NCBI GenBank assembly: GCA_043827405.1 | Contig: JBDRPD010000024.1 | Coordinates: forward strand, 1 to 49,892 | Source of the DNA: Elusimicrobiota bacterium | Lineage (GTDB): Bacteria; Elusimicrobiota; Elusimicrobia; UBA1565 | Direction of reading: 5' to 3' | DNA length: 49,892 nt | Shown here: piece by piece, positions 1 to 17,154 of the stretch | Numbering within the stretch: position 1 is the first letter of the stretch | Layout: each line of letters starts with the position of its first letter | Program-made: the position numbers and the translations under genes | The notes under the pieces: generated by a model | The model's input: only the letters and a program-made list of their open reading frames with translations | Databases searched by the model: none | What the model was told of the DNA's origin: nothing

Positions 1-1432
1 GGCGGCGTCCCGATAGCTGGAGAAATTTAAAAAGCGTAACCTCTGGTTGATGAAATCAACTTAGGCCAGTTAGAGCTGGCCGACACCGAGAGGTTACGCT
101 TAATGAATGGTACCAAAGTCGTTGCCGTCCGACAATCGAAGTCCGCGCTCCAGGTCCCGATGGGACGTGACGCGCTCACCGAAGCCCTCCGCGGCCGTAT
201 CCGTGGATTCCTGAACGACCTCCTCAGCGAAGAAGCCGACGCTTTTCTAGGAGCCGGCTCCTATCAACGGAGCGATTCACGTCGAGGCTATCGCCATGGC
301 AGCGTGCGGCGCGAGATCACGACATCCTTCGGAAAGACGCCCTTTGATCGCCCTCGCGCGAAGCTATTCGCCGAAGACGGCCATCTTGCCGAATGGCGAT
401 CCACGATGCTGCCGCGATATAGCCGGCGTTGCCGGGACGTGGACGCAGCCCTGCTAGGACTTTACTTCGGTGGGGTGAACACCCGGAAGGTGAAGCAGGC
501 GATCAGACCCCTTCTAAAGGGTTCTCCTCTCTCGAGTTCCACGATTTCGCGGCTCATCGTGAAGATCGAGGGATATTTCCAAGCATGGCAGTGCCGAAGT
601 CTGGTCGAGGAGGACATTCGCTACCTGTACTTGGATGGGATTTACGTTCGGGTGCGTTGCGGCCGGAAGGTGTCGAAGTTGCCGATGCTGGTAGCGGTGG
701 GCGTACGTGCGACGGGCGAGAAGATCCTCCTGGCGATGGAGACACGCGGTGAGGAAAGCGAGGAGGCATGGAAAGGGATGCTGCAAGGGCTCGCGGACCG
801 GGGCCTGAAGCGGCCCTTGCTGGCGATCGTGGACGGCAATCGCGGCTTGGCGAACGCGCTGGATTCGGTGTGGCCGAAAATGGATCGGCAGCGCTGTATC
901 ATTCACAAGCTGCGCAATCTTCAGTCGCATGCGCCCCGGCGCCTCTACGATGAGCTCAAGGAAGACTTCCATAGGATCGTCTACGCCGACGACATGGCTT
1001 CGGGCAAGGAGTTCTATGATCGTTTCTTGCGCAAGTGGAAGAAGCAATGGACGCCGGTGGCGCGCTCGCTGGAGGAGGCTGGACCGGAACTCCTGGCTTT
1101 CTATCGATACCCGCAGAGCCAGTGGAAGTCTTTAAGAACAACGAACGCCGTGGAGCGGCTCAACGAGGAGTTCCGGCGACGCATGAAGACGCAGGGATCA
1201 TTCCCAAGCGAGTCCTCCGTGCTCGTCGTTTTGTTCGGGCTCGTAGCGTCGGGGATGGTGCGGCTACGGAAGATTCCGGGCTACTACGACATGCCGCCAA
1301 GGAGTCCGGAGGCGTTGGAGCGATCAGTTTGAAGCAAGAGGGATAAAGCGAAAGGAGAACGAAAAAGCTAGAATGAAATTCCTCAACCGAGAGCTACGCT
1401 AAACGAATTTCTCCACGAATCGGGACGCGGCC
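1..1432 (+). mobile_element. IS256-family insertion sequence, complete
   Basis: Terminal inverted repeats 1-27 (GGCGGCGTCCCGATAGCTGGAGAAATT) and 1406-1432 match at 23/27 and enclose a single DDE transposase. The left flank is outside the window, so the target duplication cannot be checked. Confidence 0.93.
103..1332 (+). CDS. IS256-family (Mutator-type) DDE transposase
   Basis: 409 aa with YLYLDG, AIVDG..GL, QRCIIHKLRN and RTTNAVERLNEEFRRR motifs typical of IS256 transposases. Confidence 0.95.
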   Translation: MNGTKVVAVRQSKSALQVPMGRDALTEALRGRIRGFLNDLLSEEADAFLGAGSYQRSDSRRGYRHGSVRREITTSFGKTPFDRPRAKLFAEDGHLAEWRSTMLPRYSRRCRDVDAALLGLYFGGVNTRKVKQAIRPLLKGSPLSSSTISRLIVKIEGYFQAWQCRSLVEEDIRYLYLDGIYVRVRCGRKVSKLPMLVAVGVRATGEKILLAMETRGEESEEAWKGMLQGLADRGLKRPLLAIVDGNRGLANALDSVWPKMDRQRCIIHKLRNLQSHAPRRLYDELKEDFHRIVYADDMASGKEFYDRFLRKWKKQWTPVARSLEEAGPELLAFYRYPQSQWKSLRTTNAVERLNEEFRRRMKTQGSFPSESSVLVVLFGLVASGMVRLRKIPGYYDMPPRSPEALERSV

Positions 1433-1446
1433 TGGACACGTCGCCA

Positions 1447-2403
1447 CTATTCAATAATTGTTGCCTCAATCCGGTTCTTTAATTTTATTCGTAGATCTGC
1501 TGGACTCTTCCAGACAATGTGATTATATTGACGCGTGTCAAAATGTGCGTCGTCCAAGTCGGAGTCTTTACACGTAAATATCACGGGGCGACCTAATCCT
1601 AAAGAAAACCCCGCTTCGAAGTAAACCCCATGGCGATGCATGGAGAAGTCGGCCACTAGAAATCTACTTCTCTTTATCTCCCCGATTATGCGGTCACAAA
1701 TCTTTTCATTGTGCTCTTTGAGGTCAATTCTTAGCGGATTGTATCCAGCATCCTTAATCCCTTGAGAAAAACCTTTCTCCCAAGCCTCGTATAGTGTCGC
1801 GTCAAATGACATCGCAACAAATACTTGTTTGCTTTGCGATCCCAGCGCACCACGCTGAATCTCAATTATCCGACTGAGCCCTTTCGCCGTTAGATTTAGA
1901 TGGCAAGGGAGCGCCCCTTTGTAGTGATCGATATATCCACTTATATGTAATTGATTGAGGATGAAATGCATCTCCTGAGAGTTTATTGCATAAAGGATAG
2001 GGTGATCCTTGATGCGGATTTCAAGTTTATCACCAAGATGCTTTGTTAGATAATTTAAGTTCAATAATGCTCTGTCTAACCTATCAGCCAAGGACTGCGG
2101 TGAGAACATTGAGAGGATCGCATCGATGCCAATGCAGTTCTTCTTCGATTGGGTGCTAGCGACTTTTTGACTAGATAATATTCGAGGGCAATGTAGTTCC
2201 TGAATCAAGAGTTTTTTGACATATGCAGAAAGCATCGCACGATCCTCGGCGGTGAGACCAGAGATTCTATCAACAGCTTCTTCTGTGATTTCATACTTAC
2301 CACAATAGCTGCAATCAACGAACAAAACCTCGCCGAAGCTGCCATGAACGTCGTGCTCATTCAACGGTTCGTGGCAGAAATAGCAGGGATGTCGGTCTCC
2401 CAT
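1447..2403 (-). CDS. Zn-ribbon + nucleoside 2-deoxyribosyltransferase/TIR-like domain protein, putative defence effector
   Basis: N-terminal CYFC and CSYC pairs. C-terminal VFVAMSF...IIGEIKRSRFLVADFS..RHGVYFEAGFSLGLGRPVI...FDTRQYNHIVW is typical of the NDT-like fold with conserved Glu. Confidence 0.75.
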   Translation of the reverse strand: MGDRHPCYFCHEPLNEHDVHGSFGEVLFVDCSYCGKYEITEEAVDRISGLTAEDRAMLSAYVKKLLIQELHCPRILSSQKVASTQSKKNCIGIDAILSMFSPQSLADRLDRALLNLNYLTKHLGDKLEIRIKDHPILYAINSQEMHFILNQLHISGYIDHYKGALPCHLNLTAKGLSRIIEIQRGALGSQSKQVFVAMSFDATLYEAWEKGFSQGIKDAGYNPLRIDLKEHNEKICDRIIGEIKRSRFLVADFSMHRHGVYFEAGFSLGLGRPVIFTCKDSDLDDAHFDTRQYNHIVWKSPADLRIKLKNRIEATIIE

Positions 2404-2580: not shown

Positions 2581-3555
2581 CTAACTCTGCGCTGGTCCCT
2601 CTCGCGAGACGGCCACCCGGATCAATTCTGCCTCTGAGATTTCGAGCGTTTTGAGTGCCCCGCGCTTTGAAGCAGATGCTTGGTCTTCGCATAGATCAAT
2701 TACGAGCATGAAGATCGTCTTGTTGTTGTAGGTGATGCATGGCACGGACTGCTCTTGGCCGGCGAACGGGAAGCGAATTCCCTCCGGGCAGAACTTGAAG
2801 ACAACCAAGTACCCAAAGGGCTCATTGTAGTCGACGGTGTATGCATAGATTTGGTTGAAGGCGTTGATGAGATAGCTCTTCCCCTTCTCTAAGGTGAAGA
2901 TCTTGGCATCAGCGACAAGACGCTCTGGCCCTGTCTGAGCTCCAACCAGATCTGCATTCCCGGACGCTGATTTTGGTTCGATTGAGAACTCAATGCCTTG
3001 CACGAAGAGAAACTCATAAAGATTCCGGGTGAGATTCTTCTCACCCCTTTTAGTATCAGCCTTCCATAGGGCGACCAATTGCTCCCGCCGGAACCATTCA
3101 CACCGGTGTTTGTAGCGCTTGAGTTGGGCTAGAACTGCTCGCTGGTCATCGAGTTGCTCATCAACATAGTCGTATAGAGTCTCCAGGAAGATAGAGCGAA
3201 AGGAGTCGAGGCTCTCGTTGTGGTTCGATGCGTTGCAATACTGTCGTCCCAAAGTTACTTCAACTTTGTCGGATGCGCCCAGGCATTTCTTAATAACGAA
3301 GTAAGAGACAACAACATTTTCGAGCTCCGTCTCAAATACAAGTGCTTGGCCTTTGAGTATCTTGTCAGCTTCGGCTTCCATTTCGGGCTTCTTCTTAGCT
3401 AATTCATCCAGGAGGGATGCAAGAATGGAATTTCCCTGAAAGAATCCCCAATATTGCTTAAGGCCATAGTGGAAAAGCTGAAATTCGAGCGAGTTTAGGC
3501 GTCGTGTGCGCTTCTGAAGTTTATAGCGCAGGCTCTGGATCAACTCGTTGTTCAT
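2581..3555 (-). CDS. Putative PD-(D/E)xK nuclease-fold protein
   Basis: 324 aa. C-terminal half has E..SG.ADL...LVADAK followed by NQIYAY (QxxxY) and GYLVVF; N-terminal half is helical. Confidence 0.6.
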   Translation of the reverse strand: MNNELIQSLRYKLQKRTRRLNSLEFQLFHYGLKQYWGFFQGNSILASLLDELAKKKPEMEAEADKILKGQALVFETELENVVVSYFVIKKCLGASDKVEVTLGRQYCNASNHNESLDSFRSIFLETLYDYVDEQLDDQRAVLAQLKRYKHRCEWFRREQLVALWKADTKRGEKNLTRNLYEFLFVQGIEFSIEPKSASGNADLVGAQTGPERLVADAKIFTLEKGKSYLINAFNQIYAYTVDYNEPFGYLVVFKFCPEGIRFPFAGQEQSVPCITYNNKTIFMLVIDLCEDQASASKRGALKTLEISEAELIRVAVSREGPAQS

Positions 3556-6278: not shown

Positions 6279-7190
6279 TTATGCCCAAGGGCCTGGAGCG
6301 TTCCACTTCATCCCGTCGACCTTGCCCTTTAGGACGGCCGTGGCGATCGGAGGCAGGAACCGACGCAGGGCCCCCACGACTTCTTTAAGTTCCTTGGGGG
6401 CGGTATCAATCTTCGTCCGCCGAATGAAAGCCCGCCATTGGACGATCTTCCCCGCGTCACTGGTAAACTCGTCTGTGAGCGCGACGGGATGCGCTTCAAG
6501 CTTTGTCTTTCGGTTAGCGAAGGTTTTTTTGATCGCTTCGCCGAGGATTTTCCCATCGAAGTTGAACTGCTCGGACAGCAGCCAGATGTCATAGAAGTCC
6601 TTCATGCGGCTGTTGAGAAGCCCAAGTTGGGTCATGGCCTCGAACTTTTCTGCGATAACCGTCTCGCGGGGATAGCCGCGAAGCTTCGGCGCGGGCATGT
6701 CCAGGAAGGTCGGGTAGTCGATCTCGCGAGGCTTGGGTGAGACCGTGTCGCCGAATCCGAAATCGATCTGCATCGCGGCCTTGGCCTGGCCGAGCTTGCC
6801 GGTAAAGGTCACTCGCACGCCCTCGTAATCAGCGTCCTCCTTGATGCGCTTACCTTTGACGCTGCCTTCGAGGAAGCTCATTCCGTCGGCCTCGACCTCG
6901 ATTGCGCAGACCTCCTTGACCATGGTGACTAGATTCTCCACAGTGTTGTTGGTCCGGCCCAGGAGGTCGATGTCCCGCGTGGCCCGCGAGCGCGGAGCCT
7001 TCCAGACGACGAACATCAATGCCCCCTTGAGCACGACCTTGTCCTTGTATTTCGAGCGGCTCAGGCGGTAGAGAAAGCGCTCCATCGCGAAGTACTGGAG
7101 GAGTTCGTCGAACGGCCGGGAACTCTCGCGGGCAAGGTTGAGCAGGCGCTGACGGGCCGAGGCCGCGACATTTTTGATGGGCTTATTCAC
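6279..7190 (-). CDS. abiEii: Type IV TA toxin, AbiEii/AbiGii nucleotidyltransferase
   Basis: VLKGA, RATRDIDL, AEKFEA and SRMKDFYDI motifs; GTG start overlaps the abiEi TGA. Confidence 0.92.
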   Translation of the reverse strand: MNKPIKNVAASARQRLLNLARESSRPFDELLQYFAMERFLYRLSRSKYKDKVVLKGALMFVVWKAPRSRATRDIDLLGRTNNTVENLVTMVKEVCAIEVEADGMSFLEGSVKGKRIKEDADYEGVRVTFTGKLGQAKAAMQIDFGFGDTVSPKPREIDYPTFLDMPAPKLRGYPRETVIAEKFEAMTQLGLLNSRMKDFYDIWLLSEQFNFDGKILGEAIKKTFANRKTKLEAHPVALTDEFTSDAGKIVQWRAFIRRTKIDTAPKELKEVVGALRRFLPPIATAVLKGKVDGMKWNAPGPWA

Positions 7191-7795
7191 AGCAGGGCTT
7201 CGAGATAGGGTTTCATAACGCGTCCGACACGGCAAATCTTCGCATATTTGAGCAGAGCGTCCGGCTTGGAGCGTTTCCTCTCCCGGCAGAGCTTGAGCGC
7301 TTCGATGGCTACATCCAGGCCGATGCGGTTGCGGAACTTGAAGCAGTCGGCGACGGTCTTCTCCGGGGAATAGACTCGGAGTTCGACCCCATCGACCTTA
7401 TGGATATCGATCCCCTCGCTTTGGGCTTTGCCTGAGAGCCAGACGCAGCGAAGCGGCGGAAAATCGAGCCGGGGCTTCTCCGCGCCCTTCGCCAGAGCCA
7501 CATGAACCTCGTGCGGGACCTGGGTCGTGATTTCATGGAAAGCGAGAGCCGAGATTAGACAGATTACGCCCTGCGGTACGCGGAGCGCGACCGTGGCCAG
7601 GTCCGGCTTGGAGAAAGGCGGCAGTCCGGCCAGGCGGTAGAGCCCGCGGCTTACGGGCTCGATCATTCCCATCTCCCGCATGCCGTAGAGGTTGCGGGGA
7701 TGGATGCCGAGCTCAAGAGCTTGGGAGGTCCTTAGGAGGCCTCCGTGTGCTTTGAAGATCTTCAGCTCTCGCTGATATGGGGTAGATGATGCCAT
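7187..7795 (-). CDS. abiEi: Type IV TA antitoxin, AbiEi family
   Basis: N-terminal wHTH (VSRGLYRL), ICLISALAFHEITTQVP, YSPEKTVADCFKFRN. Confidence 0.92.
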   Translation of the reverse strand: MASSTPYQRELKIFKAHGGLLRTSQALELGIHPRNLYGMREMGMIEPVSRGLYRLAGLPPFSKPDLATVALRVPQGVICLISALAFHEITTQVPHEVHVALAKGAEKPRLDFPPLRCVWLSGKAQSEGIDIHKVDGVELRVYSPEKTVADCFKFRNRIGLDVAIEALKLCRERKRSKPDALLKYAKICRVGRVMKPYLEALL

Positions 7796-7861
7796 GGATA
7801 AATATACCGATACTTATATATATCTATAGGTAATATTATCCCGAAAAGCATGGATTGTCAA
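7796..7861 (-). promoter_or_regulatory. Sigma70 promoter and inverted-repeat operator of abiE
   Basis: TTGACA (7861-7856), 17 bp, TAATAT (7838-7833). Imperfect inverted repeat GGATAAATATACC/GGTAATATTATCC (7796-7841) overlaps the -10, as expected for AbiEi autoregulation. Confidence 0.6.
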
Positions 7862-8028
7862 TGCCTTTTTGACATCATAATCCAATCCGCCTGGCAGGCC
7901 CCCCCCAACAGGGCTTAAAATTGCTGCCCGGAAATGTCCACTCCATTTGGCTCCAACGCCTGAGATGATGATAAACTACTATGTAACTAATACTGTCAGA
8001 TTAGTCTGGCTACGTGGGGGCAGCAAAG

Positions 8029-9837
8029 ATGGCGAAGAGTCTTTTGATGGAAGTGGTGTTGCTCGGGGAGGGCAGCTTTGGGCAGACCTTCCTCGTGCAC
8101 GACCTCAGCAAACGGTTCGGAGCGCCGCTCCTTGTTATGAAGATTCCAAAGGATAGTACCGGGGTTGTAGATGACGACATTAAGAACGAAATTAACACTT
8201 TAATACGTCTCGCCCCCCACAGTAATGTTGTGAAACTGCTTGGTATTGAGGAGTTTCGAGGCCACGCATGCATTGTGATGGAACATGTCAACGGAGGTAA
8301 TTTACGAGATCCAGCAGACAATTGGAGCAAAGCTTTTCGCTCCGGGAGAGAGCAACAAATTCTTGAAGCTGAAGCCGCTATCCGCCAAATATGCCTTGGC
8401 TTAAAGCACATACATGACAAACAAGTTATACACCGGGACCTAAAACTCGAGAACATCCTCTATGAAGATGGCGGCGAAGGCATACTTATAAAAATCTGCG
8501 ATTTCGGTCTATCCAGGACCTTCAAAGCAGACGACTGGACGACAGTCGGGGGAACCCTCCCCTATATGGCCCCCGAAACCCTGGAAGGGACCTACAGCTA
8601 CTCTACTGACATTTATGCACTAGGCGCAATTATATACCGCATAATAACTGGGAAATTTCCCTTGGACTTCGGCGATTGTCGAGACTCCACTGAAAAGAAA
8701 GAAGTAATTCGAACGGAACGACCACAAACGCCCGATAAGGTGATTGGCAGAGCCGCTGGAACACTCGGCGATATCGCTGCGAAGTGTCTTGAAAAGAGCC
8801 CCGAAGCCCGCTATGGATCGATTGATGACATCCTTCGCGCACTCCCGACAGCCACGCCCACGCAAAGGTCCCCGGCCCCCCCCTCAAGCGCTCCTGCGAC
8901 AAAGCCGCCCGATATCACTGAAGCTATAAAAGAGAAACTCTCTGGGTGCGGAATAACCATCGACTCCGAAAAATCCATTGAGTATGGGATCCAACTTGTA
9001 GCGCGTTTAGGTGGAGAGAAAAACAATATCAATATCTACACAGGCAAAAAGGGAACGAAGGTGATTGTCGGCGGAAAACAGGGAGCCTTGTTCCAACAAC
9101 TCCAGGAGATCCATAAAGAACTCGGCATTGGGGCCTCCGCCCAACAACGCAAAGCATCACCTGCGGCGGCCCTCCCTCCGTTACCCGCGCCACCATGGAT
9201 CGGCACTGACGAGTCGGGCAAGGGGGATTATTTTGGACCTCTTGTCATCGCAGGCGCCTACGTCGAGCCAAGCCTCCTCGAAGTTTTGCATGAACTAGGA
9301 ATACGGGACAGCAAGCGCCTTAGCGACAAGCGGATTCGCCTACTGGCAGGCCAAATCCGTCGACTGATGAAGAAGGAGCATTTTGCCGTAGTCGAAATTA
9401 AACCAGAGACTTACAACAAGCTGTACGCAGAGTTCCGTAATGAGGGGAAGAACCTGAACACCCTCCTTGCCTGGGGGCACGCACGAGCGATTGAAGATAT
9501 TATCTCAATGCAGCCCTGCGAGACCGTTATCGCCGACCAATTTGGTGATGAAAGCTATATCAAATCCAAACTACTCAAGAGCACCAAGGACCAACGAGTA
9601 AACCTCATACAGCGACACAAGGCGGAAGCCAACATCGCCGTCGCTACTGCGTCCATCCTCGCTAGAGACAGGTATCTTGATTGGCTCGAGCGAGCATTTA
9701 AAGAATGGGGCGAGCCTCTGCCTAAGGGGGCGTCAAATTTGGTTCTTGAAGCGGCCAAGCGTTTTTCCAAATGTAACGGACATGACAACCTTGTTAAAGT
9801 GGCAAAACTACATTTTAAGACGACTCAAAGGATTTAG
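8029..9837 (+). CDS. Ser/Thr protein kinase - ribonuclease HIII fusion protein
   Basis: Hanks kinase motifs GEGSFG, VMK, HRDLKLEN, DFG, APE, DIYALG. Then a Pro-rich linker, a TBP-like segment (GIQL...INIYTGKKGTKVIVGG) and the RNase HIII core (IGTDESGKGDYFGPLV, DSKRL, IADQF, KAE..IAVATASILAR). Alternative GTG start at 8014. Confidence 0.9.
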   Translation: MAKSLLMEVVLLGEGSFGQTFLVHDLSKRFGAPLLVMKIPKDSTGVVDDDIKNEINTLIRLAPHSNVVKLLGIEEFRGHACIVMEHVNGGNLRDPADNWSKAFRSGREQQILEAEAAIRQICLGLKHIHDKQVIHRDLKLENILYEDGGEGILIKICDFGLSRTFKADDWTTVGGTLPYMAPETLEGTYSYSTDIYALGAIIYRIITGKFPLDFGDCRDSTEKKEVIRTERPQTPDKVIGRAAGTLGDIAAKCLEKSPEARYGSIDDILRALPTATPTQRSPAPPSSAPATKPPDITEAIKEKLSGCGITIDSEKSIEYGIQLVARLGGEKNNINIYTGKKGTKVIVGGKQGALFQQLQEIHKELGIGASAQQRKASPAAALPPLPAPPWIGTDESGKGDYFGPLVIAGAYVEPSLLEVLHELGIRDSKRLSDKRIRLLAGQIRRLMKKEHFAVVEIKPETYNKLYAEFRNEGKNLNTLLAWGHARAIEDIISMQPCETVIADQFGDESYIKSKLLKSTKDQRVNLIQRHKAEANIAVATASILARDRYLDWLERAFKEWGEPLPKGASNLVLEAAKRFSKCNGHDNLVKVAKLHFKTTQRI

Positions 9838-9839
9838 TT

Positions 9840-11111
9840 ATGAATGAAGAACTAAAACAACTATTTTCAAAACATAAGTATTTCGCCTGCATCAAACAGA
9901 TTGAGTCATCTCCAGGGACTGAGCAGGCCCAAGACGTCGCGAAAGTGTTTTTATCGAGCCTGCTAGGAACAGGCCAGCATGAGCGGGCCATAGAATTCTG
10001 CAAACGAAAAATCGAAGAGGCAAAAAGCCGCAAAGATAGAAATGATTGGCAGTACCGGCTGGCAGGAGCCTACCTTGAAACTAAACCCGAATTGGCTCTT
10101 GAAGCGATCCAAACCCATCTGCGGGAATTCAAGCAAAGCATTCACGGCAGAGCGGTCGCTATCCGGATCTGTTCGAAGCTCGCTCGGCACTCAGCTGCCG
10201 AGCAGTACTACAGAGAAGGGATAGACATCATCCAAGCACTCCCAGAAGCCAAGAAAAAAAGTTTTGGGTCCCTGATCGCGATGCTTCACAAGGACTACGG
10301 GGATTTCCTCCACAAAGTAGCAGAATCTAATCAAGACCACGAGAAGAAGCAGGCTGCTTGCGAGGCATTCCAGCATGCCGCCAATGCACACCCAGGAAAC
10401 CACTTAAACTGGTACCACCTCGGGAAAGTTCATTTTGAGTTGCATAATTTGGATGAGGCGAAAGCAGCTTTCGCGCACGCACTAAAAATTAAGGAGGAAC
10501 CCTATATCATCCACCAACTTGCGCAAGTCGAAGCTGCGAGGGGGCACGACGAAGAGGCTGTTAAGATATACAGCCAAATCCCCGACAAACGCCGACAGCC
10601 ATATGTGTGGTCGAAGCTCGGCCAGTGTCTCGAACGTTTAGGGAAACAACGGGAGGCTGGACGCGCTTACCGTGAAGCAATCGCACGGGAGTCGAACAAG
10701 CATTATCACCACCTCTACTTGGGCCGCCTTTTTATGGCAATGAATGCGAAAACGCAGGCCATAAGGGAGTTTGAGGAAACGCGCAAACTACACAAGAGTG
10801 AGTTTGGCCCCGACCATTCAGCGGCACGTGAGCTCATCGAAAAATGCAAGCAGATGGAAGAAGACACAACCGTGACCTTTCGGGAAGCTGCTAAAGTGAA
10901 AAAAGAACGTGGAGTGATCGCCCGCTACAATATGGATAAGGGCTTTGGCTTTATAGATTTTGGATCAAAAAGTCTCTTCTTCCACATCACCGACATCAAA
11001 GACCAATCAAGAAAGGGAACCCCTTCCAGCGGGCAGCGGGTATTGTTTCTCGTAAAAGAAACACCGAAGGGGTTCGCGGCGAGTGAGGTTGAGCGTGCAT
11101 CCGCAGATTAG
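9840..11111 (+). CDS. TPR-repeat protein with C-terminal cold-shock (OB-fold) domain
   Basis: Repeated TPR-like helices (WYHLGKVHFELHNLDEAKAAF, WSKLGQCLERLGKQREA). C-terminal GVIARYNMDKGFGFI...LFFHITDI...GQRVLF...KGFAASEV. Starts 2 bp after the kinase stop. Confidence 0.85.
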   Translation: MNEELKQLFSKHKYFACIKQIESSPGTEQAQDVAKVFLSSLLGTGQHERAIEFCKRKIEEAKSRKDRNDWQYRLAGAYLETKPELALEAIQTHLREFKQSIHGRAVAIRICSKLARHSAAEQYYREGIDIIQALPEAKKKSFGSLIAMLHKDYGDFLHKVAESNQDHEKKQAACEAFQHAANAHPGNHLNWYHLGKVHFELHNLDEAKAAFAHALKIKEEPYIIHQLAQVEAARGHDEEAVKIYSQIPDKRRQPYVWSKLGQCLERLGKQREAGRAYREAIARESNKHYHHLYLGRLFMAMNAKTQAIREFEETRKLHKSEFGPDHSAARELIEKCKQMEEDTTVTFREAAKVKKERGVIARYNMDKGFGFIDFGSKSLFFHITDIKDQSRKGTPSSGQRVLFLVKETPKGFAASEVERASAD

Positions 11112-11117
11112 GGCCGA

Positions 11118-11300
11118 TTAGTTATCCGCGGCGCTCACAGCATCGCCCGCACCATAGTCGACGTCAACCTCGAGGTTCCAACGATAAAAGGTCGTTTCGG
11201 TGATACCATGCTTGCGGCAAGCGTCTTTTATGCTGCCGCTGGTGTCGGCTTCCCGCAGGATCGCTACGATCTGTTCCGGCTTGAATTTTTTCCGTGCCAT
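11118..11300 (-). pseudogene. Truncated IS3-family transposase OrfA fragment
   Basis: MARKKFKPEQIVAILREA...KDACRKHGITETTFYRW, then homology ends; no OrfB. Confidence 0.8.
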
Positions 11301-11414: not shown

Positions 11415-12704
11415 ATGGGAAAACGGAAAAAGAGGATTGTCTACCTGATCGGGGCAGGAGCTTCTATCGCTGTCGATCCCGTAGTCCCCGGTATGGATAA
11501 TTTTCTGGACTGCGCTCTAAACAATCTCGAGGGTCCTGAAGATGCCTCATGTGTTTTAGCTTTGGAGAAGCTTCGGGAATTGGCGACTTTCCCATTCTCG
11601 GGCCATCTCGAAACACCGTGGCCTTTAAGTGGCCTCCACGACGAACGAAGACTCACGCAGTTTAAAGGTTTTTATAAGACGTTCCTGAGCGAGCGTGCCC
11701 AGCACAAAAAACCTGGATATAATAACTTGGAATCCATTTTTGACGAAGCTACTATGGGCTGGCATAAGGATGGCGGAGAAGCCCATAGACGTCTGACAAC
11801 CTTGATTGGGTGGTTGTTCTCAAAACTGGATCAAAAATTATCTACATCATTAACCTCATCGAAGAACCCCTATCGAATTCTGGGAGGCTGGCTCTCTGAG
11901 AAGGCCGCATCGGAATACCAGCATCTATTGATTTCATTTAATTATGATGTTTGGCTTGAGCAAGCATTGTTCGATTCACATGTGGGAGGCCGCAGATTAT
12001 GGCATCCAAGTGACGGTTACTGTATGCCAAGCCATTCGACACTATTCGGCGGATATCTCGGCCCTTCAGATAGAGAGCAGAGTCGCAGACAACAGGCGAA
12101 TCACTCCAAGGGTGACATAGGCACGATGGTTCCGCTTGAGGCGCGCCTCTTTCGCAATATTCCGAAGCGATCTAGGATCAAGATATTGAAACCTCATGGG
12201 TCACTATCTTGGGTGCGCCCCGTAGAAAAGCCCTACTCTACACCACCGTTGCTACTCCTCGACGTTGATGAGATCCATACTAATACGCTCGCAGGAAATG
12301 TCGTTCACCTCGAGAAAGGTCAGGAATTAATCAATATCAAGCAGCAAACGACATCGCCGGATAGGTACTTCCCACTAATTGTTCCGCCTGCGACAGTGAA
12401 GGCTCGTTCTGGAAGGGTTTTTTGGGAAATTCAGAAAGAACTAGATTCTCAGATCAATAGTGCTGATGTTGTTGTTGTTATTGGATGGAGTATGCCGGAT
12501 ACTGATATCGACTCACGTTCACGAATGCAAGGAATTATATCGAGGCGGAATAAGCAGCTGGAAAAATTAATCGTCTGCAACTTCCACCAACCCGATCCAT
12601 TTTATACTAAATTTGAGAATCTTTTTTGGCCAGAAACCGAACCAATATTCTGGGATGAAGGATTTAATAGGGATTTTGTCGAAAAATGTCTCACGTGTCT
12701 CTAG
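11415..12704 (+). CDS. SIR2-like domain protein, putative NADase defence effector
   Basis: YLIGAGAS, ISFNYDVWLEQAL, LKPHGSLSW, LIVPP and VIGWSMPDTD motifs. Confidence 0.85.
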   Translation: MGKRKKRIVYLIGAGASIAVDPVVPGMDNFLDCALNNLEGPEDASCVLALEKLRELATFPFSGHLETPWPLSGLHDERRLTQFKGFYKTFLSERAQHKKPGYNNLESIFDEATMGWHKDGGEAHRRLTTLIGWLFSKLDQKLSTSLTSSKNPYRILGGWLSEKAASEYQHLLISFNYDVWLEQALFDSHVGGRRLWHPSDGYCMPSHSTLFGGYLGPSDREQSRRQQANHSKGDIGTMVPLEARLFRNIPKRSRIKILKPHGSLSWVRPVEKPYSTPPLLLLDVDEIHTNTLAGNVVHLEKGQELINIKQQTTSPDRYFPLIVPPATVKARSGRVFWEIQKELDSQINSADVVVVIGWSMPDTDIDSRSRMQGIISRRNKQLEKLIVCNFHQPDPFYTKFENLFWPETEPIFWDEGFNRDFVEKCLTCL

Positions 12705-12734: not shown

Positions 12735-13043
12735 TTATACATATTTCTCGCATTTTTTACGGAGTTCTTTTGTTTTATCAAGAATTCCTTGAATGACCTC
12801 CTTGGGGCGCCCTGGCTTCGCGTGTAGTAAGCAGTATTCTAATTCTGTTATAGACATATCTGGAGCAGGTGCTATTTTATCCATCCATGAGCAGGATTCG
12901 TTCTCACATCTATTCGCTCGTATATTGCGATCATACTGTAAAGACTTTTCGTTACAGTTTGGACATTCCGAACAGTTCTCGCCATAAATTGGGTCAAAGA
13001 CGTCTTTTTTGGCAGGTTTTGTGAGCAAATTAAGTTCTGTCAT
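12735..13043 (-). CDS. Small Cys-rich (Zn-ribbon) protein
   Basis: CPNC...RCENESCSW; ATG at 13043 overlaps the 3' end of the deaminase gene. Confidence 0.6.
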   Translation of the reverse strand: MTELNLLTKPAKKDVFDPIYGENCSECPNCNEKSLQYDRNIRANRCENESCSWMDKIAPAPDMSITELEYCLLHAKPGRPKEVIQGILDKTKELRKKCEKYV

Positions 13044-14226
13044 AGACCCTCTCAAATGCGCGAGCTTTTATGCCTTCAAATTTTTTTAATTCAACTTTAG
13101 CTTCTTCAAGCATCCGCCAAGCCTCAGGGGATGGGTATGGCTCGACATAGACTACCTCACGTAGCCCGATTTCAATAATCTTTTTTGCGCAAAGCAAACA
13201 GGGGAAAGTCGTCGTATATAGAACAGCGCCATTATTTAATACAGCCTCACTCCCTCTTCGCCCCAGTTGAAGTATGGCTCTCTCCTCTGCGTGAACTGCC
13301 CTGCATAAATCCAGGGCTTTGCTAATTTCGCGATATTGCTCTAATTCTGGTTGAGTTCCACAATTCGGACATTCTGAAAGGATGCACTGTATCCGAATTT
13401 TACGTCGGTTGCCTTTAGAACAGGTTAAACAACTCCTCCTTAAGTCTCTCCGGCAAGCCTGTATGCTGGCACATGTCGCCGTGCCTTGAGGAACATCATT
13501 GAAACCGCTTGATGCGACATTCGACTTCAGGTCCATGATGGCCGCGCCAACCTTTCTCTTTAAGCATGTGGACCTTTTGGCTTGCGTCCAGGCATGAGAC
13601 ATGCCAATCTCCATGGGGGTGGGGCTATAATCATCAGGATTCTCGATACGGGCTAAATAATCGTCTACTTTTTGTGTTAGATCTTGTGTTGTGGATGTGT
13701 TATTGATAACCAAATCAGCTTGGTCGACACACCTGGCTACATGTTGCCCGTGGAGTGGCTCATTCTCGCCTGAGTCACGCTGATCATCTATTTCAAAATC
13801 TTTTATATTCGTATATTCTTTGTCGTGCAGAACTCTTTCCCATCGCACTTGTTTCGAAGCGTCAATATTAATTAGGAAAAAATTAGGATATTGCCCTCTT
13901 AAAGTTCGTGCTTCCTGTTGATTGCGGATGCTTTTTACGACTATGCGTGAGGGGCGCTTTCGTTTGCCAGATTTCGCAGATGGGACGTTTTCAATTTCTA
14001 AAATCGTAAGAGAAGCGAGATGCTGTTCCCCGTTACTCTTTCGCAACTCATCTCCAATGTTTTGACTATCTCGGCGAGTTAGAGCAGGATACCCCCTTCG
14101 CTTTCCTTCAATCTTGATGGGATTTGCTAACGAGAAAATGGCGAAGCCCTTTTTCGCTAAATATTGAGCGACAGTGCCGCACCCGCTACCGAAAGAGCCT
14201 GTCAGTCCTAGTACTAGCGAGTCCAA
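13030..14226 (-). CDS. P-loop kinase - deoxycytidylate deaminase fusion (AvcD/dCTP-deaminase antiphage type)
   Basis: N-terminal GLTGSFGSGCGTVA; C-terminal STCLKRKVGA, HAEERAI and FPCLLCAKKI; TTG start with GGAG RBS. Confidence 0.85.
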   Translation of the reverse strand: MDSLVLGLTGSFGSGCGTVAQYLAKKGFAIFSLANPIKIEGKRRGYPALTRRDSQNIGDELRKSNGEQHLASLTILEIENVPSAKSGKRKRPSRIVVKSIRNQQEARTLRGQYPNFFLINIDASKQVRWERVLHDKEYTNIKDFEIDDQRDSGENEPLHGQHVARCVDQADLVINNTSTTQDLTQKVDDYLARIENPDDYSPTPMEIGMSHAWTQAKRSTCLKRKVGAAIMDLKSNVASSGFNDVPQGTATCASIQACRRDLRRSCLTCSKGNRRKIRIQCILSECPNCGTQPELEQYREISKALDLCRAVHAEERAILQLGRRGSEAVLNNGAVLYTTTFPCLLCAKKIIEIGLREVVYVEPYPSPEAWRMLEEAKVELKKFEGIKARAFERVYDRT

Positions 14227-15448: not shown

Positions 15449-15578
15449 CGCAGGGTCGTCTAACTTCCCGTCAGTCGTCCATAGTATATCAGCCTCACCG
15501 CAGACTTGCCAGTGCCGCTCGACAAAGCGGAGCGGTTCCCCAGAGGCCGTCAGCGGAATCCTTTGGGAAACCGTCGGC

Positions 15579-15651
15579 CTGCGGGGGTGGGACTCGAACC
15601 CACATCCCTCCGTTTGACTGACGGGAGACTTACCAGTTAGTCGACCCCGCA
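15579..15651 (-). tRNA. Atypical tRNA-Asp(GTC)-like RNA
   Basis: 73-nt cloverleaf: TGCGGGG/CCCCGCA acceptor, GACT/AGTC D stem, anticodon loop CAGTCAA, GTGGG-TTCGAGT-CCCAC T arm, G73. Atypical features are A33, a C-A mismatch at the top of the anticodon stem, U1-A72 and no encoded CCA. Confidence 0.75.
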
Positions 15652-15727
15652 GACCTGCCCATATTTACGAATGAGGTCCAGAATAGTTCCCTGTCGCGGG
15701 CAAATATCGAGCCAGTTGCGAAACTCG

Positions 15728-15801: not shown

Positions 15802-17154
15802 TTAGCGGATGACGATATCGGATGAGGTATGGAGAGTCGGACTCTGGTCCCGGTTCTGGCGCCGTGCCTCGTCCTGTACCTTAGGCTTCACGTACTGGTA
15901 AAGGCTCTTCACGGTAATCAGCCCTTTGACATCCTTCGCCTCGCCATCGAGTCCCTGCAAAAGATAATACGTGAAGGTGCCATGTCCCCGCGATTCCAGA
16001 GTACTGGTTATTTGCTCTCCGGTCGCGGCGGCCATTACCGTCAATTCGGGCGGGATTGCGGCTTTCTCCACCTTGAGGACTAGAGGCCGAGCGCCTTTGG
16101 GAAGTACTGAACGGCCGCCCGTGCCCGAGAAGCAAGCGTCCATAGCAAGAATGACTTCTTTGGCTTTGAGCGCTGAGAGTTTTTCGTAGAGCCTTTGTGT
16201 AGGATAGGCGGTGTCTTTGAGAAAAGCCGGATCCCCGTCCCAGGGAACGAGATAGGCTTTCCCGGTCGATACGTCCGGCGCTCCGTGACCGGAGAAATAG
16301 AAGAAAACGCGGCTGTTCTTCTGGATGTTTTGCGGGAGCCAGGATTCAATGTTCTTCTTGAGGGCGGAGTAGCTTGCATCAGGACCGATCAGCTGGATGA
16401 TGTTGCGCCGGGGGAAACCCAAGGCGAGCAGGTAGCCGGTCATGGCTTTTGCATCCCGTTCCGCGTAGTCCGCCTGCGTGATGCGCGAATACTGTTCGAT
16501 TCCCACAACGACCGCGAACGCCGTCTCATCCTGCTTCATGGAGAACTGCGGTTTCAGTATCGGGGCGAGATTCGGAGCCTTTGCTACGGGAGTGCCGCCG
16601 GCCTTGCGCTGGGCGAACTCCCGCAAGGCGCCGGAGCCCAGAATCCCCGCTTCCACCTTGCGGAGAAGTTCGTCGGCCATCTTCGCGATGGCCTTGCGCG
16701 GGTTCATAGGCGGTCTGCGGAGTTCGCTGACGGCATGGACGCGGTCGATTTCCGCCCCCCCAGGCTCGAGGAATATGATGGTTTCTTCCATCTTGTATTT
16801 ACGCCGCTCCGGGATGATCGTGTCCACGATGGCGGCCAGATCGACTCCCGCCCGCTGAGCCGCCGCCACAGAGTCGGCATGCAGCACTTCTCCGAAAAGC
16901 CGTTTGAACAGGGCGACGTCCTGCTGGGTCATCTTCTCGGTCGATCCGCCCGCCAACCCCAGCATCTCCGTCTTGCGGCCATAGTCGACGGCGTCCCGGG
17001 TGTTTTCGGATGAGATGAGGGCGAGGCGCAGTTTTGGGAAAGCGGGCGGGGCCTCTGCTAGGCCCTGGTTGGCATACGGATCCCTCGCGGCTGGAACGTT
17101 GGGGAAGCAGCCTGCGAGCAGCATGGGAATAATAATCATTGCGGATATTCGCAT
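15802..17154 (-). CDS. Caspase-like (peptidase C14) domain lipoprotein
   Basis: Lipobox LLAGC; AVVVGIEQY, YFSGHG and MDACFSG (His-Cys dyad), NRDQSP. Confidence 0.88.
   Translation of the reverse strand: MRISAMIIIPMLLAGCFPNVPAARDPYANQGLAEAPPAFPKLRLALISSENTRDAVDYGRKTEMLGLAGGSTEKMTQQDVALFKRLFGEVLHADSVAAAQRAGVDLAAIVDTIIPERRKYKMEETIIFLEPGGAEIDRVHAVSELRRPPMNPRKAIAKMADELLRKVEAGILGSGALREFAQRKAGGTPVAKAPNLAPILKPQFSMKQDETAFAVVVGIEQYSRITQADYAERDAKAMTGYLLALGFPRRNIIQLIGPDASYSALKKNIESWLPQNIQKNSRVFFYFSGHGAPDVSTGKAYLVPWDGDPAFLKDTAYPTQRLYEKLSALKAKEVILAMDACFSGTGGRSVLPKGARPLVLKVEKAAIPPELTVMAAATGEQITSTLESRGHGTFTYYLLQGLDGEAKDVKGLITVKSLYQYVKPKVQDEARRQNRDQSPTLHTSSDIVIR

Follow-up and report, generated by a model that had tools for sequence, protein, structure and literature searches.

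The closest described relatives of the locus reported here are the TOTE conflict systems (named after TPR, OB, TBP and Effector), for which the available part of the 2025 preprint PMC12458937 cites Aravind, Iyer and Burroughs (2022); as outlined in that part, these systems have in common a fusion of TPR repeats to a cold-shock domain (CSD) together with TBP proteins, and often include RNase H domains. We analysed a 49,892-nucleotide stretch of DNA from an Elusimicrobiota bacterium (contig JBDRPD010000024.1 of assembly GCA_043827405.1; this whole stretch is called the window below) that carries two adjoining genes, gene A encoding a fusion of a Hanks-type Ser/Thr kinase, a TBP-like module and an RNase HIII, and gene B encoding a TPR-CSD protein. 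We read this pair as a kinase-bearing TOTE member that was horizontally acquired and lies in a defence island, with a core formed by TBP-RNase HIII and TPR-CSD and with the kinase as output, and we give this reading a probability of roughly 0.6. The pair is a rare kinase-bearing variant of a class that already has a name and that is itself a computational prediction; it is not a new class. The genes and their domains are the following (positions in the window):

8029..9837, plus strand: gene A, kinase-TBP-RNase HIII fusion (open reading frame (ORF), Pfam, NCBIfam, AlphaFold model)
8029..8844, plus strand: Hanks-type Ser/Thr kinase domain of gene A, residues 1-272 (Pfam Pkinase, motifs, Foldseek matches to kinase folds)
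8914..9120, plus strand: TBP-like module of gene A, residues 296-364 (AlphaFold model, Foldseek)
9196..9837, plus strand: RNase HIII catalytic domain of gene A, residues 390-602 (Pfam, NCBIfam, PDB match, alignment, Foldseek)
9840..11111, plus strand: gene B, TPR-CSD partner, 423 aa (ORF, Pfam, homologues, alignment, model)
9840..10850, plus strand: TPR-like helical solenoid of gene B, residues 1-337 (Pfam TPR families, model)
10905..11096, plus strand: cold-shock (OB) domain of gene B, residues 356-419 (Pfam CSD, alignment, model)

Gene A is a frame of 602 aa that runs without internal stop from the ATG at 8029 to 9837 (plus strand); an alternative GTG start lies at 8014, the ATG at 8029 is the start of the stored database protein, and the homologues likewise start there. 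The initial annotation, made from the DNA letters and their ORFs, had described this frame as an uninterrupted union of a kinase, a TBP-like segment and an RNase HIII in which the kinase motifs and the four acidic residues are all present, and this description held in every part. Pkinase matches residues 10-266 (Pfam, E 5.5e-45, 154.3 bits against a cut-off of 31.7), and the glycine loop (G13xG15xxG18), the VAIK lysine (K38), E54, the HRD (H135-R136-D137), N142, the DFG (D158-F-G160) and the APE (A181-P-E183), all in ATG numbering, place the domain among the Hanks-type Ser/Thr protein kinases. At the other end, an RNase_HII-family domain was found at residues 391-599 (Pfam, E 5.6e-27), the RNase HIII equivalog model TIGR00716 (rnhC) matches residues 329-598 with 181.4 bits against a cut-off of 161.2 (NCBIfam), and the sequence match to Bst-RNase HIII (PDB 2d0a, 3e-27) aligns the four acidic residues, which (D394, E395, D503 and E533) are invariant across 30 aligned kinase-fused and related RNase HIII sequences.

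The module between these two domains became visible in the AlphaFold model of gene A, which was built on the same 30-sequence alignment (mean pLDDT 86.9) and has three globular parts (1-272, 296-364 and 390-602). Between the kinase and the RNase H fold it places a helix (296-306), four strands (310-349) and a further helix (353-364), flanked by two low-confidence linkers rich in Ser, Thr and Pro (276-293 and 369-380); everything in the protein except these two short, non-hydrophobic linkers is predicted to lie inside globular domains. The best Foldseek match of the model in the PDB was Bst-RNase HIII (3asm, E 2.4e-17, 327 columns against a chain of 308 residues), the others being T. ammonificans RNase H3 with an RNA/DNA hybrid (4py5) and then protein kinases, and since the alignment spans a full-length RNase HIII, the middle module can be equated with the TBP-like domain through which that enzyme binds its substrate. 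In gene A, a TBP-like, presumably hybrid-binding module thus lies between a Hanks kinase and an RNase HIII domain, both of them predicted to be catalytically intact.

Two nucleotides (9838-9839) lie between the stop codon of gene A and gene B. The product of gene B matches several TPR families in Pfam and carries, at residues 357-418, a CSD (E 1.3e-9 for the complete protein, 7.9e-11 for the segment alone), and in its model (pLDDT 94.8) 20 helices form a solenoid over residues 1-337, after which comes a barrel of five strands at 356-419, so that Pfam and the model agree with the earlier description of a closely following gene (start at 9840) for TPRs and a CSD. Full-length TPR-CSD homologues of gene B exist, and the CSD motifs GFGFI and FFHI are kept across 27 aligned partners.

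The association between the two genes was clearly conserved in relatives of the RNase HIII part. We found 2387 such relatives at E up to 0.001 among 8000 candidates scored, one of the homologues being labelled Elusimicrobiota by its source; a classification by hand count of the best 120 of these 2387 gave 60 with Lon_C, 8 with Pkinase (gene A itself included), 2 with RnlA_toxin and 50 with RNase_HII only. We then compared 80 loci from species genomes and 80 from metagenomes with the window, and searched for the partner with two hidden Markov models (HMMs), one of the TPR-CSD type and one of the DUF7017 type, counting only loci with at least 1300 nt downstream. A TPR-OB gene lies directly downstream in 39 of the 41 loci with room in which the RNase HIII is linked to an effector (kinase, Lon or RnlA), against none of the 56 loci with a plain RNase HIII (0/56). 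The individual counts were 2/2 for kinase-fused RNase HIII (window included), 13/14 for the Lon-fused form, 4/4 for the RnlA-fused form and 20/21 for RNase HIII with an adjacent RnlA-like gene; short RNase HIII ORFs had the partner in 2/24 cases, both of them cut at the contig start. The spacing between the RNase HIII gene and its partner ranged from -166 to +25 nt across loci. This co-occurrence, which the initial annotation had proposed to look for, supports genes A and B as a conserved functional pair. Other scans were empty or neutral: the scan of genome contigs with the single gene A protein returned no relatives, the alignment scan of genome contigs gave no kinase fusion among its best 80 matches, and in viral contigs the gene A alignment found no relatives and the four closest gene B proteins gave CSD-only matches, which we regard as neutral.

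The assignment to TOTE follows from the composition of the pair: gene B is a TPR protein with an OB fold fused to it, the effector protein of gene A contains a TBP-like domain along with a kinase and a nuclease of the RNase H fold, and such effector genes show the operon linkage to a TPR-OB gene described above. Pfam holds models that are named after TOTE, TBP-TOTE (PF22721) and S1CSD-TOTE-2 among them; the latter ('S1/CSD-like domain 2 of the TOTE conflict systems') matches the partner proteins of two of the compared loci (L012 and L091), and TBP-TOTE reaches a second kinase fusion (L134) with 1.9e-5 and 24.6 bits, just below its cut-off of 27. The architecture, which the initial annotation had taken to be undescribed, therefore falls within a family that has a name already, that of a TPR-OB protein with a TBP-effector protein, as seen from the Pfam models and from the available part of PMC12458937. 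The literature search returned no paper that names a kinase-RNase HIII system, the DefensePredictor paper included. PADLOC v2.0.0 has no families (0) for Lon-RNase HIII or stand-alone TOTE RNase HIII proteins, and its family PDLC01170 ('TPR repeats containing protein fused to cold shock-like domain') gave an end-to-end match to partners of the DUF7017 type.

Comparison with the individual relatives shows what is shared and what is particular to the pair. In the Lon-type TOTE systems (e.g. L015 from Nitrospira, L083, L107 and L115) the same TBP-like module and RNase HIII are found, with 53-60% identity to the catalytic part of gene A, the TPR-CSD partner is directly downstream (partner HMM 1e-133 to 1e-151) and the setting is often a defence island; unlike gene A, these proteins of 735-820 aa have an N-terminal protease of the Lon_C/ChlI type and no kinase. 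Three-gene TOTE systems (e.g. L005, L010, L024 and L081) consist of an RnlA-like gene (TBP and HEPN), a stand-alone RNase HIII and a TPR-OB gene of the DUF7017 type, and resemble the pair in the DEDE residues of the RNase HIII and in the position of the TPR-OB gene, directly downstream in 20 of the 21 loci. What sets the RnlA-type systems apart from the pair is an RnlA-type RNase as effector, either separate or fused, a partner of the DUF7017 / S1CSD-TOTE type and the absence of a kinase. Housekeeping RNase HIII (e.g. Bst-RNase HIII, 2d0a and 3asm, and the T. ammonificans enzyme, 4py5) has the same TBP-like N-domain, the type 2 RNase H fold and the four acidic residues, but is a stand-alone protein of about 310 aa that has neither a kinase nor, judged from the plain loci, a TPR-OB partner. 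The system of PMC12458937 has the TPR-CSD fusion and the TBP proteins in common with TOTE; it differs from the pair in its YprA helicase with an inactivated RNase H fold and its NERD nuclease, the available part of the source describing no kinase and no active RNase HIII.

On the kinase side, the initial annotation had pointed to Stk2, which we take to be a comparable defence kinase. The best PADLOC matches of the gene A kinase were the defence kinases mad6 (1.4e-52) and PD-T4-6 (4.7e-38), in both cases over the kinase domain only, and the MADS MAD6, PD-T4-6 and Stk2 kinases are, unlike gene A, not known to carry an RNase HIII. Membership of the pair in MADS (MAD6) or PD-T4-6 was considered and rejected, as the NCBIfam model antiphage_MADS6 scored 118.9 bits against a cut-off of 460, the kinase domain alone was matched and no mad genes adjoin.

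The kinase form is rare: when residues 215-400, across the kinase-to-TBP junction, were searched against 7272 candidates drawn from 5.8 billion proteins, 5 clusters matched at E up to 1e-5, the cluster of gene A included. Together with a fragment (P0004) and three more distant proteins (P0071, P0074 and L134) the number of distinct kinase fusions comes to about nine. In a tree of the RNase domain gene A falls in a well-supported clade of six kinase-bearing members, and P0071 and P0074 are neighbours of Lon-type forms; this FastTree tree is rough, with long branches (L134 among them), and was not used for the order of events. On it the kinase fusions occupy two or more positions close to Lon-type forms, and the kinase may have been joined more than once. 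The three distant fusions (L134 at 721-2811 of its locus) have about 95 aa more between the kinase and the RNase domain, and L134 has two TBP-TOTE stretches, pointing to a duplication of the TBP module in this second lineage of kinase fusions. L134 is the only other kinase locus with context; it keeps the TPR-CSD partner (HMM 1e-70) and is followed downstream by genes for HsdM, a DUF559 nuclease, a YhcG nuclease and HsdS. Defence genes thus adjoin each of the two kinase loci for which there is context, L134 and the one in the window, in line with the defence-type setting claimed at the outset.

Several observations weigh against reading the pair as a kinase-bearing TOTE system. Context is available for these two kinase loci only. 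One of the kinase fusions (P0005) reads HRN, the remaining kinase-bearing sequences in the alignment keeping the Asp (HRD or HLD), which means that kinase catalysis may not always be needed. The TBP segment of the window itself matches TBP-TOTE with an E of 0.19 and 11.8 bits (cut-off 27), and gene B matches the generic CSD model and not the S1CSD-TOTE models. In the quick FastTree tree, 31 RNase HIII genes without a partner fall in the same clade as the TOTE RNase HIII domains; the nuclease can thus stand alone, and its part as a core sensor is something we infer. PADLOC matches (E up to 1e-10) within 5 kb of 15 other TOTE loci amounted to 20 of 110 ORFs against 6 of 110 beside plain RNase HIII (Fisher test, p 0.006 per ORF), which speaks for the reading; counted per locus they amounted to 9 of 15 TOTE loci against 5 of 14 plain loci (p 0.27), with some families generic and the loci not independent, so the defence enrichment is modest; the flanking matches include Type I restriction-modification sets, AbiU, AbiEi, RmrA, HmaC and PDC-S70. 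The use of a kinase as TOTE effector may be the sole unreported feature of the pair, and the TOTE content of the 2022 review is known here at second hand, through the available part of the citing paper. The literature search found no experiment on this pair or on any TOTE system.

What the pair might do can be proposed from the comparison of effectors. Binding of single-stranded nucleic acid is typical of cold-shock domains, and kinases that stand alone are among the known defence effectors. Across the related systems the N-terminal domain on the TBP-RNase HIII core is swapped among a kinase, a Lon-type protease and an RnlA-type HEPN RNase, the pairing with a TPR-OB protein being constant. For the TBP domain of RNase HIII, binding of RNA/DNA hybrids is reported in work cited in the available part of PMC3710099, and the fold match to the hybrid-bound enzyme 4py5 agrees with it. 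TBP-RNase HIII and TPR-CSD could together form a constant, nucleic-acid-recognising core that would bind invader RNA:DNA hybrids, such as replication primers, R-loops or reverse-transcription intermediates, the RNase HIII cutting the RNA strand of the hybrid and the CSD binding single-stranded nucleic acid alongside it. The kinase would be the variable output arm that, once activated, phosphorylates host or invader proteins and so leads to growth arrest or abortive infection, as with stand-alone defence kinases. We take the kinase as an output and not as a gate because in sister systems the same N-terminal position is taken by a Lon protease or an RnlA-type RNase, and on the sequences compared this appears more parsimonious than the gating of hybrid cleavage by phosphorylation that the initial annotation had favoured. 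A more specific version, in which the hybrid sensor reads by cutting and the products or single strands are caught by the CSD, releasing a swappable effector whose output is here protein phosphorylation, is a tentative idea that we regard as possible, with the odds against it. We know of no defence system in which a Hanks kinase has been shown to be coupled directly to the sensing of hybrids.

The kinase could also be a regulator: on sensing by TPR-CSD, (auto)phosphorylation would turn the activity of the fused RNase HIII on or off, the nuclease being the sole effector. The presence of kinase and nuclease in one polypeptide, the Ser/Thr/Pro-rich linkers (which could be phosphorylated) and the invariance of the RNase HIII catalytic residues in the 30 sequences would fit such an arrangement; the protease or RNase found at the same position in sister systems is easier to understand as an output than as a gate, and the fusion without the catalytic Asp (P0005) speaks against it as well, so that we consider it unlikely. 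A similarly low probability is given to a toxin-antitoxin-like abortive module, in which gene A would be toxic through the kinase, the RNase H or both, and gene B a neutraliser that is released or degraded on infection. The tight coupling of the genes across loci, the richness of the island in toxin-antitoxin and Abi modules (AbiE, Gp49/HTH) and the use of RnlA-type toxin domains by relatives agree with this, but gene B, with its 423 aa and conserved nucleic-acid-binding motifs, is unlike a typical small, labile antitoxin.

Two further explanations concern the nature of gene A itself. It might be a housekeeping RNase HIII for primer or R-loop removal, incidentally fused to a regulatory kinase and without a role in conflict, as it passes the rnhC equivalog model and some partner-less RNase HIII genes of the same clade adjoin ordinary genes (e.g. 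for Thy1 and an arabinofuranosidase). Against this, the genome carries a separate RNase HII gene of its own (at least one additional RNase HII-family gene was also present in 4/4 other TOTE genomes tested), neither the RNase HIII part nor the fusion was found in the 40 relatives searched (same family or order), where gene A matched generic kinase domains only (up to 39% identity), the pair has a low GC content and a defence-island location, and the partner gene is present only with effector-linked forms; we consider this explanation very improbable. A stand-alone housekeeping enzyme of the lineage was rejected, because gene A is fused to a kinase, a separate RNase HII is encoded in the genome and the fusion was not found in those 40 relatives. 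That the fusion arose in assembly or gene calling, through a chimeric contig or the reading of two genes as one, has a negligible probability in our view. The window does come from a metagenome-assembled genome, and a separately assembled contig of run X1 stops at 10830, within gene B; this contig nevertheless spans 7000-10830 with 0 differences and bridges both the kinase/RNase and the A/B junctions, an agreement that is not independent support as run X1 is a groundwater metagenome and possibly the source sample. Other samples contain independent kinase-RNase HIII fusions; a close group (P0005-P0008 and the fragment P0004) shows 47-53% identity with gene A and the more distant proteins (P0071, P0074 and L134) 33-37%, and the full-length TPR-CSD homologues argue against a chimera at the break in gene B. 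The check for a chimeric assembly, which had been named as a possible refutation, thus found no chimera. The contigs of run X1 break at 10830-10836, just 5' of the CSD, where the word depth drops from 11.5 to 7.7; this may be strain variation in the 3' part of gene B.

If this reading holds, an enzyme that public records list as ribonuclease HIII can belong to the immune machinery and need not be a housekeeping enzyme only. The TOTE systems are widespread in metagenomes, as the 2387 relatives of the RNase part illustrate, yet in the literature found they exist as a computational prediction only. The kinase variant is compact (two genes, about 3.1 kb), and its kinase, RNase H and CSD binding activities can each be assayed with a clear point mutant, which makes it a convenient entry point to RNA:DNA hybrids as a possible signal of infection and to the way in which one sensing core could drive protease, RNase or kinase outputs.

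The surroundings of the pair resemble a defence island. The GC content is 0.50 over 8-11 kb, compared with mostly 0.59-0.72 (about 0.65) from 18 kb on, in agreement with the lower GC noted before relative to host genes. Upstream are genes for AbiEii and AbiEi (PADLOC 2e-108 and 6e-74), and downstream follow a weak SIR2-like gene, a dCTP deaminase gene, a Gp49/HTH pair and a tRNA-Asp gene. The earlier placement of the pair between AbiE, SIR2 and a dCTP deaminase is well founded for AbiE and for the dCTP deaminase, both of which gave strong matches: the gene at 13030-14226 (minus strand) is a dCTP-deaminase-type defence gene (PADLOC dCTPase 6.7e-96), and its product of 398 aa has a dCMP/cytidine deaminase domain and, at the N terminus, a part resembling AAA_18. 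The SIR2 label of the gene at 11415-12704 (plus strand, 429 aa) is tentative, as its PADLOC SIR2 matches are weak (best 3.6e-10) and no Pfam or NCBIfam family was matched. A tRNA-integrated island had also been claimed. The tRNA-Asp gene (15576-15652) indeed lies where the GC content shifts, but an integrase was not found among the ORFs scanned, nor an att-type or tRNA-derived direct repeat in 1-18 kb, and a tRNA-integrated origin is therefore no more than plausible. The contig starts inside the low-GC island, at a Mutator-family transposase gene (103-1332, plus strand, Pfam 1.6e-83), which is probably why the assembly breaks there. The sequences around the two genes include the following elements:

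7796..8028, no strand: AT-rich intergenic region between the divergent abiEi and gene A, presumed promoter region
11208..11224, plus strand: terminator-like hairpin about 100 nt 3' of gene B (the count of such sites is not above shuffled expectation)

In the scan of 7796-8028 for promoters the sole sigma-70-like match was on the minus strand, and the consensus scan did not rise above chance. Two metatranscriptome runs of the same study contained next to none of the sampled words and yielded no contigs, a result that has no bearing on expression.

A few other genes in these loci deserve mention. Upstream of two Lon-type systems (L015, 5811-6641, and L014, 641-1486) we observed an HTH/antitoxin-like gene for a protein of 276-281 aa (dnstrm_HI1420; MqsA-like/HTH_3), which may be a regulator or a third component of Lon-type TOTE. 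In Cytobacillus oceanisediminis the TOTE genes (L012, 2008-6783) are located just downstream of genes for Tn7-type TnsB, TnsC and TniQ, and the system may ride on a Tn7-like transposon in this species. Within the window, the ORF at 1447-2403 (minus strand) has weak matches to TIR effectors and to nucleoside 2-deoxyribosyltransferase and adjoins an ORF at 2581-3555 (minus strand) with a weak PDC-M14B match; from their sequences, the two may be another two-gene defence candidate. Just past the tRNA-Asp gene, at the edge of the low-GC island, a gene at 15802-17154 (minus strand) encodes a caspase-like (Peptidase_C14) protein of 450 aa.

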